Below, piece after piece: positions 41,345 to 55,177 of a DNA stretch of 64,000 bases. Position 1 is the first letter of the stretch; the number at the start of each line of letters is the position of its first letter. Under the pieces are notes generated by a model. That model made no database searches, was not told the origin of the DNA, and worked only from the letters and a program-made list of their open reading frames with translations. This DNA comes from Eledone cirrhosa (taxonomy: Eukaryota): positions 207,266,001 through 207,330,000 of the forward strand of contig OZ024741.1 of the NCBI GenBank assembly GCA_964016885.1, read 5' to 3'. Both the position numbers and the translations under genes were made by a program.

Positions 41345-41411
41345 AAGGTTTAGCAAATAATGAAAAAGTTTCAAAATAAATTTTAAAAAATTGACTTTAC
41401 CTACTATAGTT

Positions 41412-41494
41412 ACCTTTACCGATCAGTTTCGAATCCCAAAAATAAACGGAGGCCATACGGCCTTCGTTGCAAAGAAAGATTCTCGTCAGAAGGT
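41412..41494 (-). ncRNA. Type I HHR
   Basis: ACCTT-CTGACGA-GAATC..GATTC-GAAA-CT-GATC-GG-TA^-AAGGT. Confidence 0.82.
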
Positions 41495-41679
41495 TCTTTT
41501 CATTCGAAGAATATAAAATTCTTGAATTCAAATTACGAACTAGCGCTATCCAAAACTGTTCCCGAGATGAGAGTGAATGAAGTGGAATCAACTTCATTCA
41601 CTCTCATCTCGGGAACAGTTTTGGATAGCGCTAGTTCGTAATTTGAATTCAAGAATTTTATATTCTTCGAATGAAAAGA

Positions 41680-41762
41680 ACCTTCTGACGAGAATCTATC
41701 TTTGCAAAGAAGGCCGTATGGCCTCCGTTTATTTTTGGGATTCGAAACCGATCGTTAAAGGT
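41680..41762 (+). ncRNA. Type I HHR (mirror copy, one stem III mismatch)
   Basis: ACCTT-CTGACGA-GAATC..GATTC-GAAA-CC-GATC-GT-TA-AAGGT. Confidence 0.7.
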
Positions 41763-41942
41763 AACTATAGTAGGTAAAGTCAATTTTTTAAAATTTATTT
41801 TGAAACTTTTTCATTATTTGCTAAACCTTGTTTATATATGTTCTGGCTCGTTAATTTATTAACCTGCCATTGAACCACATTGGCATTTGGTTGGACAATA
41901 CATGCGTCCCTTAACGCCTTGTGCGTGAAGGAACACATATCC

Positions 41943-42937: not shown

Positions 42938-42940
<3 letters not shown>

Positions 42941-45900
42941 AGTAGGAGGTGAGTAATATTATAGAACAATAAAACTATGTGTATATCAGATAAGTAGCAC
43001 TCAACAGTTGGTATAACTGGAGTATATATAAAGAAGAAATTAAAAGATGGTTAAAAAAGTTCCATATATTTTATTATGCGCATTATCCTGGGACAAACAT
43101 TGTGTTCTCATCAGATAAAATAAGGTAACATGATATGAGGCCTAAAAACACTTGTGAACGAGAAAGTGTCCAATCTACATATGACAAAAATATAAGAGAA
43201 GAGAAAATAATAGGAAAAAATGAAGAAAAGAAAAGAAGGAAAAAGGAAAAAGAAATAGAAGAGAGGGAAAAGAAAGAAAGAAGGAGGAGAGTGAAGGAGA
43301 AAGAGAGAGAGACTTTTGATCGGGAACGCTGTAAAAAAAATGAAAACAGCCGTAAATAACGGCTAAAAAAATAAATAAATAAATTGATGAGGTGTATGTG
43401 CTAATATTACAAATATTAGAGGTCTAGAATATAGAAACTGGGTATATTATTTTATATTGAGTTTCAATACTAAAAATGGGATTAAAAAGTGTAAAAATGT
43501 ATTAATAAAATGAAATATAATAAAATTAAATTAAATTAAAAATAAATATAATAATTATAAAAAAAGGTTTTTAAAATAAAATAAAATAAAATAAAATAAG
43601 ATAGAATGGAATAAAAAATAAAAATGAGAATAGTCTACCTATGTCAAAATTAAAAATTACTATTAAAAATTTATATATTTGGGGGTATACTATTTAATTA
43701 TTATTTTATATCAACAAGTAAATAATCGGAAATTGCTAGAAAGGTTTATAAACGTAGAAAGACATATGACGTCATAGTTTGTTTACAAAATCTACGAAGG
43801 TTTGAACAGAATTTAAGGCAATAGAGGAAAAAGGTGAAAGGCTTAAAAATGCAAAGAAAAGAGAATTAATACATTGTAGAATATAATGAAATATGTGAGA
43901 CTCTTTAAATCGGAAAATTCCTCAAATTCGCGGTGGAATATATCGTGATCATGCTCATTTTACTGTCTTAAATTGTAACAAAGTAAACTTTAATATTATT
44001 AAGAAAAATATACTTGAACTATTTAAGCATCTTAATTTAAAAATTGAATTCGTGAATAATGATAAATTAGCAAATTTCCTTGATATCCCTTAACCTAGAT
44101 ACTGGCCTATATTACCCATACCATAAGGATAATGAGAACCTAAATTATGTTAACTTTAAATCAAACCACCCTAATAATGTTAAAACTGCTATAGTCAGAA
44201 GTGTTGAAAATAGTATTTCTAATTTATCCTCTAATAGACATATCTTCGATGCTAACGCCAACTATTATAATAATGCGTTATCTAGGGCTGGATACACTAA
44301 GGAAACTAATCTTGGCAGAACTTATAGTAATAAAGCTAGTAATAAGCATACCAGTAACATAAGGGGGTGACCTAGATATAAAAATATCCTTTGGTAGAAC
44401 ACTCCCTTCTCTCTTTCACTTATTAGTAATATCCCTAAATTATTTTTTAGGGCTTTAGATAACAGCTTCCTCCCTTCACATATATATAGCAAGATTTTTA
44501 ATAAGCATACCATTAAATTCTCATATTCCACTACTTCCAACATTTCTAAAATTATCTCAAGACATAATTCTAAAATATTAAATAATAACTCATATGCATC
44601 CAACCATGAGAGTCATAATAATAACACTATAAGGCCCGACGTCAATGTAAACTCTAGCCAAAATAACATAAATATAAATACAACATCAAACGTAATTTTG
44701 AGGAATGCTTCAAATAGTAATGTAAATCAGGAAACCTTAGCACCTCCTTTAGCTAATTCCACCACTCCAGTTCCTAATATAAATAATCCTGAGCCACTTG
44801 CAAATAACTCTGTTAATAATCTTAATCGTAAATGAAACTGCCCTATTAGAACTAATTGTCCTCTTAGTAATTTCTGTCTCGATAAAAACCTAATATACGA
44901 ATGTAAAGTGGTAACTAGTACCAATACCAATACCTACATTGGCTCTACTTCTACTTCTTTTAAAGCAATACTCTATAACCATTCTTCTACGTTTAAATAT
45001 CCACTTAAAAGAACCAGCACCGCACACTCAGAACTTATTTGGTCCGTAAAAGACAAAAACATTAATTACGAAATTTCTTGGCGTAAAATTTGCAACGCTT
45101 TTCCTTATTCCGATGCTTCCATATTTAGGGTTTGTAATTTATGTCTAGCTGAAAAATTTACCATTATCTCGAATTTCAACTCTTTAATAAATAGACGTAC
45201 AGACTTATTTGGTCGTTGAATTCATAAATCTTTTAAGACCTTTCACAAAGTATACAGCTAATGTCCTATAACATATTCCACGGATAACGGTTAATTTTTT
45301 TACACATATAAATTTTTTACACATATATCTTTTCACACATTTTTTCTCACATATTTCATTATATTCTACAATGTATTAATTCTCTTTTCTCTGCATTTTT
45401 AAGCCTTTCACCCTTTTTCCTCTATTGCCTTAAATTCTGTTCAAACCTTCGTAGATTTTGTAAACAAACTATGACGCCATGTGTCTTTCTACGTTTATAA
45501 ACCTTTCTAGCAATTTTCTTTATTTACTTGTTGATATAAAATAATAATTAAATAGTATACCCCACATATATACATTTTTAATAGTAATTTTTAATTTTGA
45601 CATAGGTAGACTATTCTTATTTTTATTTTTTATTCTATTCTATATTATTTTATTTTATTTTATTTTAAAAACCTATTTTTATAATTATTATAATTATTTT
45701 TAATTTTATTTAATTTTATTATATTTTATTTTATTAATACATTTTTACACTTCTTAATCCAACTTTTAGCATTCAAACTCAATATAAAATAATATACCCA
45801 GTTTCTATATTCGAGACCTCTAATATTTCTAATACTAGCACATACACCTCATCAATTTATTTTTTTTTTTAGCCGTTATTTACAACTGTTTTCATTTTTT

Positions 45901-46233
45901 TGCGTTCCCAATCAAAAGTCTCTCTCTCTCTATCTCTCTCTCTCTTTCGCTTTCTCTCTCCTCCTTCTTTCTTTCTTTTTCCTCTCTTCTATTTCTTTTT
46001 CCTTTTTTTTCCTTCTTCTTTCCTTTTCTTCATTTTTCCTATTTTTTTCTCTTCTCTTATATTTTTGTCATATGTAGACTGGACACTTTCTCGTTCACAA
46101 ATGTTTTTAGGCCTCATATCATGTTACCGTATTTTATCTGATGAGAACACAATTTTTGTCCCAGGATGATGTTGTTTTCGAAATGCGCATAATAAAATAT
46201 ATGGAACTTTTTTAACCATCTTTTAATTTCTTC

Positions 46234-46237
<4 letters not shown>
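42938..46237 (+). mobile_element. PLE family D (Nematis-like): RT C-terminus + GIY-YIG at about 43900-45261 between inverted pLTRs (about 43030-43900 / 45345-46237)
   Basis: GGIYRDH, NFLDISLNL, YVNFKSNHP, NILW*NTPFS, *NC....CPL..FC..NLIYEC, YIGST, CNLCLAEK. About 870-bp inverted repeat, tail on the left arm only, (TA)n both sides. Confidence 0.9.
46130..46199 (+). ncRNA. Type I HHR; the mirror copy at about 43069-43121 has lost GAAA
   Basis: TATTTTAT-CTGATGA-GAAC..TTTC-GAAA-T-GCGC-A-TA^-ATAAAATA. Confidence 0.85.
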
Positions 46238-46313
<76 letters not shown>

Positions 46314-46342
46314 CATATATATATATACATATATATATATAT

Positions 46343-46396
<54 letters not shown>

Positions 46397-46483
46397 ATAT
46401 ATACATATATATATATATACATATATACATATATATATATACACATATATATATATACATATATATATATATACATATATATA

Positions 46484-47227
46484 TTGAGTTAAGAACTCAA
46501 GGTAATCCCTTACAATTAAATAGCTCTCAGAAAAAAGCAGTACAATATAATTGAATAAACAAGAGAGATGAACACTAATATAAACATACATGTGTTCGAA
46601 TCGTAAGGACTAAAATTTGCTAGTGTGAAAAAATACTAGTTTTAGTCCTTACAATTCGAACACATGTATGTTTATATTAGTGTTCATCTCTCTTGTTTAT
46701 TCAATTATATTGTACGTCTCGGAAAAGCTTTTTTCTTAGAGCTATTTAATTGTAAGGGACTACCCTGAGTTCTTAACTCAATATATATTTGTCGGCTCCA
46801 TCATGTAGAGCTAATTTTTATTGTCCTGTCAGCCAGGCTGCTATTTTTAGTCGCAGGGAATTTTGAGACAAGCTGGGTTCCAAATGACACGTGCGATAAT
46901 TCATATCGTACACAATTCATTCTCTAATATTTTTAGAAGTGAAAGGTTCACTAATTTCTCAACAACTACTGAGGAGCAGAGAAACGTGAAAACTTCACTT
47001 AATAAGATGTTGCGAAACAGTCTCCAACACTGTTTAGTTGTTACCAGGCATTTTTGCCCAATATAGGTTTGTTATATTTCTTTATTTTTCTTAATTTAAT
47101 ATTTAAAGTTAAAGATAACAAACTATATTGCTGTAGTTAGTATTTTTTCACCCTAGCAAATTTTAGTCCTTACGATTCGAACACATGTATGTTTATATTA
47201 GTGTTCATCTCTCTTGTTTATTCAATT

Positions 47228-47230
<3 letters not shown>
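46484..47230 (+). mobile_element. ORF-less retrozyme-like element, unit about 521 nt, terminally redundant, with inverted 5' piece (46484-46638)
   Basis: 46640-46709 is repeated at 47161-47230. Full HHR inside; (TA)n on both sides. Confidence 0.75.
46961..47042 (+). ncRNA. Complete type I HHR with stable stem III
   Basis: AACAACTA-CTGAGGA-GCA..TGC-GAAA-CAGT-ctccaac-ACTG-TT^-TAGTTGTT; predicted cleavage after 47034. Confidence 0.88.
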
Positions 47231-47303
<73 letters not shown>

Positions 47304-47311
47304 TGGACTGT

Positions 47312-47393
<82 letters not shown>

Positions 47394-47395
47394 TA

Positions 47396-47890
47396 TACTG
47401 GACTGTTGAGGTGAACAGACGTGTTTCTATTGCTCTCTACCAAGTCTGTAGCCAGTTTCACAGCTTTAAAGCCTATTTGACCGAACTTATATATGTATAT
47501 ATATTTGTAACCATGTGCTTTTCCTACCAACTCGTAAGTACGTTTTCTTAACTACATATTATTATACACTCGTTTTTCTCTTAATATCTTCAAATAACCA
47601 ATTAACCAAAAACTTTTAACAACTTCAAACAACCAAATAACCAAATCTCACATCCATAAAAAAGAATACATATCTATATATACGCTACTTTAATATCTTC
47701 AAATAACCAAAGGCTCACTCACATAAGGAAAAAGTATATACAAATACACGGGCTTTCCCTACAAACTCGCAAGCAAGTCTTCTTAACTACAAACTATTAT
47801 ATACACTCGTTTTTCCTTGGATATCTTCAAACAACCAAATAACCAAAAAAGATTAATATCTTCAAACAACCAAACTCACATCCATAAGAA

Positions 47891-47949
<59 letters not shown>

Positions 47950-50900
47950 GATTCTTTAATTTCTTCAAATAACCAAAGTCTCACTCACGTATCAAATAAA
48001 AAATATCTTAAAACGCACACAAGGGTAAAAGAAAAAGAAAAAATATGACTACTGACCAGCAAGCCCACACCGGACGAAATTAGTCTGAAAATGAAATTGA
48101 CCTCTTAATAAACACATAGTTTTCTCTGTCCCCAAAATATAAACATTAACGCGTCGTGTCTGAATGAAATTTCTGAGAAAAACAGCTCAAACATTTACCA
48201 CGAGGTCTGCTAAGCAGATACACAACAAACTAAAACATGTAGAATTCTCTTTCAAACTAATTCAAAACCATTTTGAAAAACTTCGACATATTTACTCCAA
48301 TGGGCAAACACAACAACAACAACAGCCACAACAACAACAACAGCCAGAAAGCCAGGAGCAACCACTACTGAATTCAAGCATAATAGCTGAATTACTGAAT
48401 GACAGTATCACTCAGCCATCATTATCGCCATCACCATCACCACCGTCACCATCTTCTGCCACATCAACTGCTAGTAATGGACCACTGCTCTCTCTCCCAC
48501 CACAGTTGTCATCATCATCATCACCACTAATGCATTCTTCCCCCACATCACCACCACAGCCATGCCATAATCAAAAGAACTTTAAAAAAAAAGATCTATG
48601 GAGCTGTATGCACCCACCACTACACATACTAGAAACCCCAAAATATGCCGCTACTCACTACGTCAGAGGCTATGCACACGTATCGACTGTATATTTACCC
48701 ATTTACCGGGTACTAGGCGCACTAACACTGCCAGCCAACATCAAAGCATGCTGCCAGCACGTATAGGTCGCAGTCCCAAAATCTGCCAACATTCCCAACG
48801 TGAGAGGCTATGTCTGCTGACTGACTGTCCCTTCACTCATCTTCCTGGGACACAACGCACGAACAGTAAAGGGGCTTCATGCCAACCCACAAACCACAAT
48901 AAAGCCACCCCCTGCTGCGGTAATGCTGCTCCAGTCTCCTCACAAAGATAGGATTACAACAACAAAAACAACAAAAGTAATGCTGCTCCAGTCTTTTCAC
49001 AAAGACACGATCACAACAACAACAAATACAACAATAACAAATACTACAACAACAAAAATAACGCTGCTCCAGTCTTTTCACAAAGACACAATTACAACAA
49101 ATACAACAACAAAAACAAAAGAGGGAACTGCAACCCTATCCAATGTTGTAACCACAAATCCAATCAAAAACTCCTTTCTGAACAAAAAAAAATCTTTCTT
49201 TTTTAGCCATGAACCTCGCAAAAGAGATAGAGAAAAACATTTTAGCCATCACCCAACACGATCCTTGCTGTCACTAACAGACAATCACAAAACAAGCACC
49301 CTGCAACAGTCAAAACCAGCCACCACACTAGCCTCCACATTCTTACGCAATACACAAGGTATCAGCCCATCCATCAATGCACAGAAATGGAAGATCCAAT
49401 TCATTGAGGATTGGGTTGGTAACCATCCATTTCACATCCCTTTCTTCATTCTTACTGCGACCCACCTTAACAACTCCCACTTGGAGGCCGAAGTAAGAGT
49501 GAGAAATTTCACAACCATCCGTGCGGATCGTGTTGGCAGAAGGAAGGGTGGAACTGCCATTTTCCTGCATGATTCCTTTACGGCAGATGGCAACACAACA
49601 TTCTCCAATGGATACTGTGAATCAGTCACTGTGCACAATAAAGCCAATGACCTGACATTAGTTGGGCTCTATAGGCCACCAGAAACACCCATAATCTGCT
49701 TCAAAGAATGCCTCAACAGTATTAAATGCTTTATTAAACAGTGCCATTCTAGCAACATACTTTTGATGGGAGAGTTTAATCTACCCTGTGTCGATTGGTC
49801 TACATGTAGTTTGAAACCAGGCTCCACTACCTCAAACACTGACAAAGAGGCTGTCGAGTCACTTCTTGACTTCATGAATGAGTTTTTCTTGTCCTAACTT
49901 GTCCTTGCACCAACGAGGCATCAGAAGAACATTCTGGATCTAGTGTTTAGTAACCACACTAACACTATATATAATAATACAGTGGAAAAAAACCCTTCTC
50001 TCAGACCATGACATGGTTCTTTGTAACCTGAGATTCCACCAGCCAAAAGCCAATCCCAGGGTCCTCTCTCCAGCCCACCCATTTGATAACATGGATCTCT
50101 ACAATGCCAACTGGGATGTAATTATGAACGAACTATCACATGTCGACTGGTATTTTACAGATGCACACACTTCCACCAACATCAAAACATCTTGGCAGAT
50201 CTTTGTAGACACTGTCACAAATATATGTTCAAAACACACCCCACCAAAACCTGTGAACAAAACCAAGTGCAGTATCCCCCAAAACAGAAAAACAATTATC
50301 AGAAAAATAAAAAGAACAAACAAAAAAATTAACACACTAAAATACTGCCAACAGCAACACACACATTCAATGGCTATCACCCTGCTTGAGTAAAAAAAAT
50401 ATAACCTCCAGCAATGCATGATGACCATCATCAATAACCAGAGAATAGGTGAAGAGAGGTGGGCCATTGAGAAAATCAAACTCAACCCCAAAGTGTTCTT
50501 TACATTTGCTCAAAAACACATGGTCACCGTCTCCACTGTTGGCCCCCTAGTTGCTGAAAATGGCACACTCCAGGACAATGCCAAAACCATGGGCGAGATA
50601 CTGCATAAACAATACTGCTCTGTTTTCAGCAATCCTGATATGGTCGATCTGGGCCGTATCAGTGATGTTAATCCCCAACACACTATATCAGACATAACGT
50701 TTGGCCCACTGGTGTCTTAGCGGCAATAAACGAAATTAAACACAATTCAGCAGTAGGCCCTGACAGGTTCCCTGCTTGTGTCCTGAAGGTGTGTCGATAC
50801 CAACTTGCATCTCCTCTTGCTAATCTGTGGAGGAACTCACTGGACACTGGCTATATTCCTGAAAACTTTCTGTCCCAGTCCGTTGTCCCAGTCTTCAAAA

Positions 50901-52321
50901 GGGGAAACCTCTCATATTATCAAGGTATTTGAGAGGGTGGTGAGATCACGAATAATCCACTTTCTTGAAAGCAACGGCCTCCTGAACTCCAACCAACATG
51001 GGTTCCGTAATGGAAGGGACTGCCTAACGCAGCTCCTGCATCACTTTGACGATGTTTTGAGAGCCTTGGGAGAGGGCACCAACACTGATATCATCTACCT
51101 TGACTTCAGCAAGGCCTTAGACAGGGTTGATCATAAGATTCTACTGAAAAAACTATCCAATGTTGGTGTCTCTGGAAGGTTACTACAGTGGATCAAATGT
51201 TTCCTGACAGGCAGAACCCAGCATGTTGTAGTCGAAGGAGTAAAATCAAGCCATGCCAATGTCAACAGTGGCGTCCCACAAGGCACTGTGTTGGGCCCAC
51301 TTCTTTTCATCATCTACATTAATGACATTACTGACATCATCAAACACAGCAACATGAGAATCTTCGCAGACGATTCCAAGCTCCAAGGGGTCATCAATGA
51401 GGTGGGTGACCGGACTTGCCTTCAGTCAGACTTACTGGCTGTTATCCAATGGGCAGAAATCAATAATATGCTGTTGAATGAAGATAAATTTGAATTAATC
51501 CACTTTGGAAAAAAGGATGCCTTGAAACTACCCTACTCTCTGCCTTCGGGTGAAACTCTAGTGGCATCCAATAACATCAGAGACCTAGGAGTAATTGTGG
51601 ACAACAACATAAGCTGGGCCACTCATATAAACAGCAAAGTTGATATGGTCCGCAGAATGTGTTCCTGGATTCTTAGAACTTTCCAGTCGAGAGATATCCA
51701 CAGTTATCCTTCTCTTCTCCACTTTTTCCTGACCCCACCTTGAATACTGTTGTCCACTGTGGTCACCCCACACGAAACAAAGTATCATGAAAGTTGAAGC
51801 ACCCGAAAGGTCAATTACAAAAAAGATAGATGGCATGACAGGCGACTATTGGAGTCGATTAGAAAAGCTCAAACTTAATTCTCTCCAACGTCGCCGTGAG
51901 CGCTACATTATCTGTATGATGTGGACAATATTCCATCAGCTTTGCCCAAATGATGTTGGCATCACCTTTAGTGTACACCCAAGGCTTGGGCCCCGTGCTA
52001 TCCGCCCACGACAAAAATCTCACTCGCATCACATAACAACAATACGGCACAATTATTTCACCTCAATTGGCCCTGCACTCTTTAACATTACACCAAGACA
52101 CATCAAAGCAGAGACGGACCCCATCAAGTTCAAGAAGTCTTTGGATAAATTCCTTCAAGAAATCCCGAATAAGCCTCCTACACCCGGATATGCCTCCGTA
52201 AACAATAACTCTCTGCTCAAGTGGGCCATGGTGCCCAAACACTGATTTGTAAGACTTCGCTAGGTGCTGCTATTAAGTTAGACATGGCCTGAGCCAATAC
52301 TGGCCGAAACCTATCAAAGTT
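47396..52321 (+). mobile_element. Near full-length CR1-group LINE (ORF1-like region, APE, RT), disrupted, inserted in (TA)n
   Basis: APE: IRADR..KGGTAIF, LYRPP, LMGEFNLP.VDW, PTR..NILDLVF, SDHDMV. RT: QHGFR.GRDCLTQL, YLDFSKALDRVDH, SGVPQGTVLGPLLF, FADDSKL, LEYCCPLWSP. 3' end TATCAAAGT. Tandem repeats in the 5' UTR. Confidence 0.93.
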
Positions 52322-52676: not shown

Positions 52677-54305
52677 AACGAAGGAAATGTGGTAAGGAAC
52701 CAGGTGGACCATAACGCACCAAAGTACTCAATACTTGAGGTAGTAGAGTGGGTAATAGGAACCAGTAAGACCCCGACAGCTGAGCTCAAGCCGTTTCGAC
52801 GGCTAATTCTGGACTAAATGAAAATTTATCCTGGTATTTAAATAGCCGATCTTCTCAAGGGGTAATTCCATATATGGTCAAAGTGATTGTCAAAAATCAG
52901 TAGTAATTCTGTGGTTGCAAATTAGTAGGGGAGATGGTGGCTAAACCTGCCAGTAGGAGAAAGAGGGGAGGGGGTGGAGTAGACCCAATCAAGCGTTGGT
53001 AGTGCCAGCTACAGCTGGGCATGAGGTCAAAGAAGATACAGGGGAGGGGGAGGGGGAGGAAGTCGGAACGGTAGGTAGAACAATGGGGGGGGTAGAAATA
53101 GGAAAGAAAAAATACTGAGAGTGAAGAAAAGCAAATAAGTGTAAAGAAAAAAGTAAAGTAAATTAAATTCTACGAGCTAGGTGTCAGGCTATTGTTAGGC
53201 GAGAATAAAATAAAGAAAGAAAGAAGTAAATAAATAAATAAATAAATAAATAAGGAAATAAGTAAAAGAACTAGGTGGGACGGTATAGGCAAGGACCCTT
53301 TTAAGAGGTATAAGTACGTAAATGATACGGTGACGGGTCAACAAAAGGGGCCAAAATACTAAAGAGACTACCACGAAATAAACAATAAAGGTTTCCATCC
53401 CGGGCCAGCAACGACCCAGTGCAGCAAAGTGAACTTGTACGAGATAATAATTCTGAGTCCCGAGAAAAATATATACTAATGCTAACTCTAAAAGATCTAA
53501 AACAAGCTACATGAAAGTTCGTACGAAATAAAGGTAGAATACGGAAAAATAAATTCAGAATCCACCCCGCCCAGAAGAAAAGCGAAGCAAGAAATACTGA
53601 AACGAAAAAATAAGGCATAAGTGCCACTAAGAAATATAGAGGGCACAGAGAATAGTGGGAGCGGTCGGAAAAAGGGGGCAAGTATCCGGGGTCTAAGCCA
53701 ACTGCTATAAAGGGCGGAGTCCGCCAAATCTATTATAGACTAGGGGAGGGGGTGGTGGGGGTACTAAGGCTACATGGGGCCAAAGGGCAGCCTCGGGTGG
53801 GCGAGAAAAGACGCCGACAAAGGAGAAGAGCTGGGGTAGAAGGACAAAGGAGAGAGGGGGGAAGGAAATAAAGGAAGCGACAAAAGAATACAAAGAATAT
53901 CTTACGTCTTCCTTGGCAAGCAGGGGTTACCCATTGCAAAATCGGCAAGTGGGGTGTTATAGCCCTAGTCTACCCCCCCCCCCCCCCCCCGGGTCATTAT
54001 GGGGTTTGAGGGCGAGGTAAGTCCTACGCAATCTATGTTTACATGCAGTAACCAGTTCATCTTTCTTGTTTAGGAGTTGGTCCGTCGAAAACAGCATTTG
54101 TAAAGTTTCCTCCGAGCATAAATTGCACGGACGGCGTCCTCCCGTGTAAGAATTGGCTCTGGACAGTAATCTCCAAGTGAGATCATAGGTGATGTTGTTG
54201 TCCTTGAGGTCCCATATGTGGCCCGAAAGTGTAGTGGCGTGACGCCGGGCCGGGTTTCGGAAGGTATGTCTATGTTGGTATAGCCGGGTCTTGAAGTCAC
54301 ATGCG
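52677..54305 (-). mobile_element. PLE family E, 5'-truncated (GIY-YIG end at about 54030-54300, plus UTR/pLTR)
   Basis: Minus strand reads WRLLSRANSYTGGRRPCNLCSEE..LLNKKDELVTACKHR. HHR near the 3' end; (TA)n on both sides. Confidence 0.82.
52770..52863 (-). ncRNA. Type I HHR with U3:A8 covariant core
   Basis: ACCCC-TTGAGAA-GA(T)CGGCTA..TAGCCGTC-GAAA-CGGC-tTGAGCTCA-GCTG-TC^-GGGGT. Confidence 0.82.
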
Positions 54306-54322
54306 GTATATATATATATATA

Positions 54323-55177
54323 TACGCTGTCGAAATATTCGATAAATATTCCGCTACGGCCGACGCGAAGCGCTAGTTTTGGTTATTTGTCGGAGATTCC
54401 TTCATAGAAGCTTCATTCGTATAGCCTGGTCTATTCGATTTTTTATATAGTTAATTATGCTAATTGGGAGAGGAAACGGTATATATTTTATCTTGTGATT
54501 CTATAGACATGTTTTATGATATATAGCTCTGATTGTTTAATTTATTAATTTTTCATTGAGCCACAAAGTGACCAGTTGCAAAACACGTATATGTATGTGT
54601 ATGTATATATATATATGTAAACTTTTATATGTAATAATCTCCCACTAGGTTGAGATACAAATTTGGCTGTATTGTGCTTTGTTTTCTAGCAAAAATTCCA
54701 CCAGTCGTAAGCAACTACCACACCCCTTCCAACTTGACCGCGACTACGTCACGATTTTTAGCCATTTTGAAATGAATTCTTGGCGCGATCGCCTTGGAAA
54801 ATTTAATGTCTAGATATGAGCGAGCTTCCTGAAGAATCCGGCGCTCGAGTTTATATAATTATTACTTAATTATTGGAAAACTCAAAACACGGACGAAACC
54901 ATGGTAGAGATATTTAAATGTATTCTATTTTCTCCTAGTTTATTTTAAACCTAATTCTGTTTAGTTGACTATATCTAGGCGATTACGCTGTCGAAATATT
55001 CGATAAATATTCCGCTACGGCCGACGCGAAGCGCTAGTTTTGGTTATTTGTCGGAGATTCCTTCATAGAAGCCTCATTCGTATAGCCTAGTCTATTCGAT
55101 TTTTTATATAGTTAATTATGCTAATTCGGAGAGGAAATAGTATATACTTTATCTTGTGATTCTATAGACATGTTTTA

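Follow-up and report, generated by a model that had tools for sequence, protein, structure and literature searches.

Within the 64,000-nt stretch of the Eledone cirrhosa genome analysed here (the window) lies a short insertion, flanked on both sides by TA microsatellite, that carries a hammerhead ribozyme motif and no protein of its own. Two questions follow: what kind of element is it, and which machinery put it there? The preliminary description of the locus, made from the sequence alone, took it for a candidate retrozyme whose self-cleaved, circularised RNA had been copied by a reverse transcriptase (RT) for more than one turn. The parts of the locus are given below in window positions. The 521-nt unit U spans 46640–47160 (U1 = 46640), and E1 (U66–75) and E2 (U140–153), 78 nt apart, are the two sites at which copies of the family end.

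42938–46235, plus strand: neighbouring broken Penelope-like element (PLE), putatively of the Hydra clade (the likely partner), a separate insertion with an inverted left arm ending at its own E2 and a right end at its own E1
46236–46484: left (TA)n target tract, into which the 3′ end of that separate insertion also runs
46484–46638, minus strand: inverted left arm (U499–521 plus U1–149), its 3′ end being E2 and abutting (TA)n
46640–47160, plus strand: full 521-nt unit U, in which U1 is a recurrent 5′ stop of the family
46710–46788, plus strand: internal copy of the 78-nt "tail" between E1 (U71) and E2 (U149)
46717–46742, plus strand: hairpin 1, with a 4-bp lower stem, a 2-nt 3′ bulge and a 5-bp upper stem
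46794–46812, plus strand: hairpin 2, a degenerate second copy of the lower stem, 4–7 nt 3′ of E2
46961–47042, plus strand: complete type I hammerhead, read directly from the sequence, with a predicted cut after 47034 (U395)
47161–47230, plus strand: second pass through U1–70, terminating at E1
47227–47397: right (TA)n target tract (47231 onward after the end of the copy)

The insertion thus runs from (TA)n through the inverted arm, one full unit and U1–70 again to (TA)n: 1.13 units with a single hammerhead. The TA tracts on both flanks and the 70-bp repeat at a 521-nt period, both described previously, were recovered, the two repeats (46640–46709 and 47161–47230) being 99% identical. Because this redundancy extends from a recurrent 5′ stop (U1) to a fixed end (E1), it does not by itself constitute evidence for a circle. 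The unit end earlier placed near 46785 is real, but is merely one of two fixed ends, and the window copy has one of each. No credible ORF was found inside the unit, as first claimed: the longest stop-to-stop frame outside microsatellite is 71 aa. Nor was there a tRNA-like head of the kind expected for a tRNA-derived SINE, ARAGORN returning 0 genes and Rfam none at its gathering score. The idea that this copy is physically joined to the neighbouring PLE was considered and dismissed, as 250 nt of (TA)n lie between them and each has its own two ends. Elsewhere in the window are a broken non-LTR retrotransposon with endonuclease-like and RT (RVT_1) frames (48821–52245) and an inverted pair of short frames between TA tracts (41387–41777), which suggests another palindromic repeat insertion.

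Direct reading of the sequence confirmed the complete hammerhead previously proposed: an 8-bp stem I, a CUGAGGA core, a short stem II with a long loop, GAAA and a 5-bp stem III. The cut-site triplet is GUU in the window copy and GUC in 77 of 83 copies of its family (family A). The genome contains 139 exact copies of the motif's 25-nt 5′ half and none of its reversed control. Among 14 hammerheads of the sister families described below, two-sided changes were found in 6 of 16 stem pairs, the core being nearly invariant; 91.5% of cells were paired, against 83.1% in shuffles. Rfam gave no hammerhead match to the window copy, at the gathering score or by E-value, and its weak matches to miRNA families, which arise from the palindrome and the TA tracts, were discarded. 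The free minimum-energy structure of 46955–47050 is not the hammerhead fold (z 0.55). When the 82-nt motif was folded under constraint, the hammerhead form lay above the minimum by 1.5 kcal/mol in one other copy (L002) and by 2.7 kcal/mol in the window copy, where U17 is able to pair into stem III; on these predictions the window copy's hammerhead may be impaired. Two hammerheads are present in four of the 84 insertions analysed below. Three of these (L013 at G000:C2, about 284,569,112–284,569,978; L014; and L049) have both cores and GUC intact; in L041 the triplets are damaged. Hammerhead-like cores are also common in unrelated repeats near TA tracts (L226:4928 and 7425; L235, L242, L249, L251 and L255), and many more hammerhead families are apparently present in the genome.

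Comparison of the core of U with the 3.0-Gb genome gave 1,309 first-look candidates, the best 40 at 93–96% identity. Exact matches to the end patterns numbered 589 for E1 and 246 for E2 (reversed controls, 0); these are counts of motifs, not insertions, and the E2 pattern also matches a sister family. We estimate the family at several hundred insertions. From the core search and three exact patterns 120 loci were taken, which resolved into 86 distinct insertions; two belong to a sister family (family B) and were set aside, leaving 84 insertions with 145 arms. Fifty-one of the 84 contain both orientations, with the arms joined 5′ to 5′. Arms longer than one unit are found in 28 of 120 cases, the longest array is 1325 nt, and long arrays are absent among the 84. 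In every mapped copy that passes U521 the sequence continues into U1: the unit map is therefore closed and has no place for an ORF. The multicopy, ORF-less, hammerhead-bearing and retrozyme-like family postulated at the outset is supported.

Of particular interest is the way in which copies end. Of the 145 arms, 120 terminate at E1 (61) or E2 (59) and the other 25 elsewhere, and in 105 of the 120 TA repeats follow directly. The variable permutation points anticipated at first were not seen, the 3′ ends being fixed at these two sites. The proposal of insertion at (TA)n by PLE-type machinery fared better: the ends run into TA, and the arms, tail and tandem are of PLE type. Among 39 two-armed insertions with both ends at E1 or E2, 37 pair one E1 with one E2, one has E1 twice and one has E2 twice (P = 1.4e-9 against 0.5). 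Within the two of these samples that were not chosen by end pattern, the pairing is seen in 24 of 24 cases. A later sample of 30 loci, 10 of which were omitted as already counted, added 20 new insertions: three of three showed E1 with E2, and three more two-armed copies have one end off both sites.

Several sister families were encountered. A further class of copies reading through beyond E2 was considered as the possible start of an ORF; it proved instead to be family B, with a unit of 467–498 nt and a monomer GC content of 33%. Families C and D, met through a chance match, have units of 479–524 nt. In the tail region families B and C/D are about 70–80% identical to U. Family B has an E1 and an E2 of its own, which are paired in 10 of 10 head-to-head two-armed copies (29 loci, scored by eye; at L189 a pair of E2 ends, tail to tail and separated by 140 nt, was counted as two insertions). 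Its E2 is displaced by about 11 nt, with the distance to hairpin 2 kept. At one locus (L122:4648–5512; G000:C2, about 58,798,000) a 30-nt piece of the family B stem II loop is present in ~29 tandem copies between the two arms of a single insertion.

The neighbouring PLE in the window retains a GIY-YIG remnant (44836–45219) and minimal hammerheads at both ends, one of them near 46140; a further PLE GIY-YIG remnant lies at 53957–54382 on the minus strand, and a Pfam search recognised neither. The family of the neighbouring PLE has 55,132 candidates in the genome. RWK-like and DKT motifs and a C-terminal EN with CxxC were identified by eye in the frame of one copy (L222); these, with the (TA)n target and the hammerhead, agree with the description of the Hydra clade in part of PMC8557442, to which the family appears to belong. 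The nearest atlas clusters to the neighbouring PLE protein are cnidarian-type PLE proteins. Long copies of Hydra type (L222:2962–3210; L227) begin with a ~40-nt inverted E2 arm just before the ORF, and these starts adjoin the end of another Hydra family within one TA tract. In the window PLE's family, too, E1 and E2 are paired in all 13 two-armed copies among 29 loci.

The retrozyme and Hydra families share a further feature. Hairpin 1 stands a few bases 3′ of E1 in both, with a common shape, different sequence and pairing kept; the window copy has its first base mutated in the unit and a 10-nt deletion within it in the inverted arm. In an alignment of seq­uences from seven retrozyme tails, four Hydra tails and one unassigned tail 97% of positions are paired, with two-sided change in six of nine pairs. 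These 12 were chosen from 87 matches to a pattern in which the lower stem is prescribed, and free evidence therefore comes from the covariation of the upper stem alone. The motif occurs in eight of 6660 flank windows. Hairpin 2 is conserved and shows no covariation. Tail lengths are 78–85 nt in the retrozyme families and 81–85 nt in the Hydra family, and about 55 nt in a third, Neptune-like family. At L170 a family B copy is fused directly, with no intervening TA, to a short E2 arm of Hydra type, a single case and possibly a chimera. The link between the retrozyme and Hydra families consists of the 25-nt structure, the tail length and this possible chimera, with no alignable pLTR homology. The same bulged hairpin also occurs near the end of another (TA)n-ending repeat family (L125:3498–3619, with similar ends at L002, L012 and L246).

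Together these observations are best read as describing a PLE-mobilised non-LTR retrozyme, real and multicopy. That the family is a PLE-dependent, non-autonomous element we hold with high confidence, and a Hydra-type PLE is its likely mobiliser: we are fairly confident of that clade as the partner. The full reading, to which we give moderate confidence, is of a dispersed retrozyme with a closed unit, a conserved hammerhead and ends E1 and E2 at (TA)n, moved in trans by a Hydra PLE, probably largely from circular RNA. Rare copies with two hammerheads would be transcribed, a monomer would be cut out and a host ligase would circularise it. The hairpins 3′ of E1 and E2 would be the binding sites of the PLE protein. 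[quoted passage not shown] A more specific and distinctly tentative version holds that one circle carries two Hydra-PLE hairpins, each marking one RT start, and that a PLE dimer primes from both (TA)n ends on this one circle, at one site each, and copies round it until a primer is met.

Could the unit belong to an autonomous PLE, as its pLTR or 3′ end, whose ORF-bearing copies escaped sampling? The anatomy is that of PLE ends, and with four PLE proteins as queries a PLE ORF fragment was found in the 1.1–1.5 kb flanks at 13 of 84 loci; the searches for copies, moreover, scored the best candidates alone. However, the unit closes upon itself and leaves an ORF no place; the 13 fragments are mixed in clade, side and strand; and none of the 84 insertions is the end of an ORF-bearing parent. 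Among the 33 single-orientation copies, shared 5′ flanks were limited to one local duplicate and to widespread repeats. At the sole locus where a PLE ORF abuts the unit (L029) the Hydra-type insertion is much older, its arms being 81% identical, an age that also rules out reading L029 and L262 as co-insertions of a Hydra element and the retrozyme. An ordinary pLTR 3′ of a linked RT/GIY-YIG ORF, which the preliminary description had named as the competing case, is thus highly improbable on this sample, although rare ORF-linked relatives may exist among the sister families. Slightly less so, and still improbable, is mobilisation by another PLE clade, for example a Neptune-like one with frames of 1,100–1,225 aa, in which case the likeness of the hairpins would reflect old ancestry or convergence. 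The Neptune-like family (L230:2564–6238 and L231:2617–6147, with open frames of 1,177–1,225 aa and tandem pLTRs) has 31,935 candidates, carries a tail, likewise terminates in (TA)n and seems to have been active recently, and the longest Hydra open frame encountered is 760 aa. Against this, the shorter Neptune-like tail lacks the hairpin (0 of 4 tails), and no nucleotide homology to the unit was found in 30 Neptune-like PLE ends.

The form of the template is the more delicate matter. The region of the cut is reached by 95 arms, of which 82 read through (16 of 23 where the loci had been chosen without regard to internal sequence); 12 arms stop within 20 nt on the 3′ side of the cut, about 3-fold over background (3.2), as expected of cleaved 5′ ends, and two in the mirror window. 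Stops and read-through together are compatible with a pool in which some RNAs are cut and others have been closed again. At polymorphic columns one turn matches the next in 107 of 122 cases (62 expected), and no change consistently separates upstream from downstream units; opposite arms match in 87 of 107 (56 expected). Such agreement can also result from gene conversion or from the existence of subfamilies. An excess of 5′ stops, 19 in all, lies at the E2/E1 positions roughly one turn on (ratio 2.9, P = 6.5e-4); without the core-search loci it is 2.2-fold (P = 0.08). Natural monomers, taken from cut to cut, have predicted folds much stronger than those of shuffled sequences (z −3.2 to −5.7), a property not specific to circles. 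Many 5′ ends, moreover, cluster sharply at U1, where the window copy starts, on both the first and the second pass, the second with eight stops in 14 nt (ratio about 7); this is better explained by a linear transcript from U1 than by a circle. Just four of the 84 insertions contain two hammerheads, which likewise speaks against the circle. The windows of all these 5′-stop counts were set after inspection of the data. A PLE-dependent family copied from a linear and mostly uncleaved template, starting at U1 or upstream and longer than one unit, with the hammerhead trimming some of the RNAs, is accordingly a rival of some weight, if on the whole an unlikely one. A matching cluster of 5′ stops in family B speaks for it, as do the three of 70 arms that stop within 5 nt of the cut and the use of unprocessed RNA in vitro by PAc, the one PLE to have been reconstituted, whose main substrate is uncleaved RNA (part of PMC11167929). 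Yet 12 arms extend upstream of the second-pass U1, no recurrent difference between units marks a tandem master, the long arrays are lacking among the 84 insertions, and a complete, covarying hammerhead in mid-transcript would be expected to cut. We lean slightly towards the circle as the main template.

How does such a family compare with known systems? Retrozymes with circles have been reported from coral, mussel (a mollusc) and axolotl, with PLEs proposed as partners (part of PMC7229834), and a preprint, which in the parts considered leaves the mechanism open, describes vertebrate retrozymes as non-autonomous derivatives of PLEs and connects them phylogenetically with PLE pLTRs (10.64898/2026.07.22.740005). 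The kind of element is thus described in parts of both. On the family itself, which the preliminary description did not know from this kind of genome, a search of mainly open-access literature returned nothing, nor did it turn up retrozymes linked to Hydra elements or a hairpin of this type. The family may be listed in Repbase/Dfam under a neutral repeat name. As portrayed in parts of these two sources, animal non-LTR retrozymes share with it an ORF-less, AT-rich, head-to-tail unit, a complete type I hammerhead, a self-paired predicted monomer and the coexistence of PLEs. The unit of 521 nt exceeds the 170–400 nt given in PMC7229834 and is within the 51–972 of the preprint. Most copies here are dispersed and shorter than a dimer rather than in arrays; copies that the preprint would call active, with at least two units bearing complete hammerheads, number three of 84, and the window copy has a single hammerhead. 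To judge from parts of the retrozyme descriptions, the fixed dual ends, the inverted arms and the partner-linked hairpin also set the family apart.

The insertions themselves resemble those of PLEs, whose signature combines partly tandem copies with a 5′ copy in inverse orientation, a microsatellite target and a tail that is often confined to one end (parts of PMC8557442 and PMC3846280); in PAc the tail is delimited by two internal sites of RT initiation, and extension occurs on both strands (part of PMC11167929). They differ in the absence of an RT/EN ORF, in a complete rather than minimal hammerhead and in a tail of 78–85 nt as against 30–40 nt. Hydra-clade PLEs, as partly described in PMC8557442, and the retrozyme are alike in (TA)n target, tail length, hairpin beside E1 and pairing of E1 with E2, but those of this genome encode protein, measure ~3 kb and have a minimal hammerhead, and their alignable homology to the unit is confined to short tail motifs. 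The Chlamys MRC1-like elements are also non-coding PLE-dependent units with head-to-tail copies; according to part of the same paper they are algal, belong to a different PLE clade and generally lack a canonical hammerhead.

Which RT moves animal retrozymes, and by what signal, is left open in the parts considered of the 2020 review, where no conserved motif indicates the partner (PMC7761336), and of the preprint. The present family displays the scars of PLE insertion on a non-coding hammerhead unit, and offers a candidate partner clade, a 25-nt hairpin to mutate and a 521-nt RNA that suits the existing in vitro PLE assay. The tail at one end, stated qualitatively in parts of PMC8557442 (legend of Figure 2) and PMC3846280, becomes with the counts made here (37 of 39 retrozyme and 13 of 13 Hydra PLE insertions) a near-obligate rule, which constrains how PLEs join both DNA ends. 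If the reading of a circle with two hairpins is true, it would identify for an animal retrozyme both its partner and the signal that acts in cis, and would explain the one-end tail rule of PLEs.
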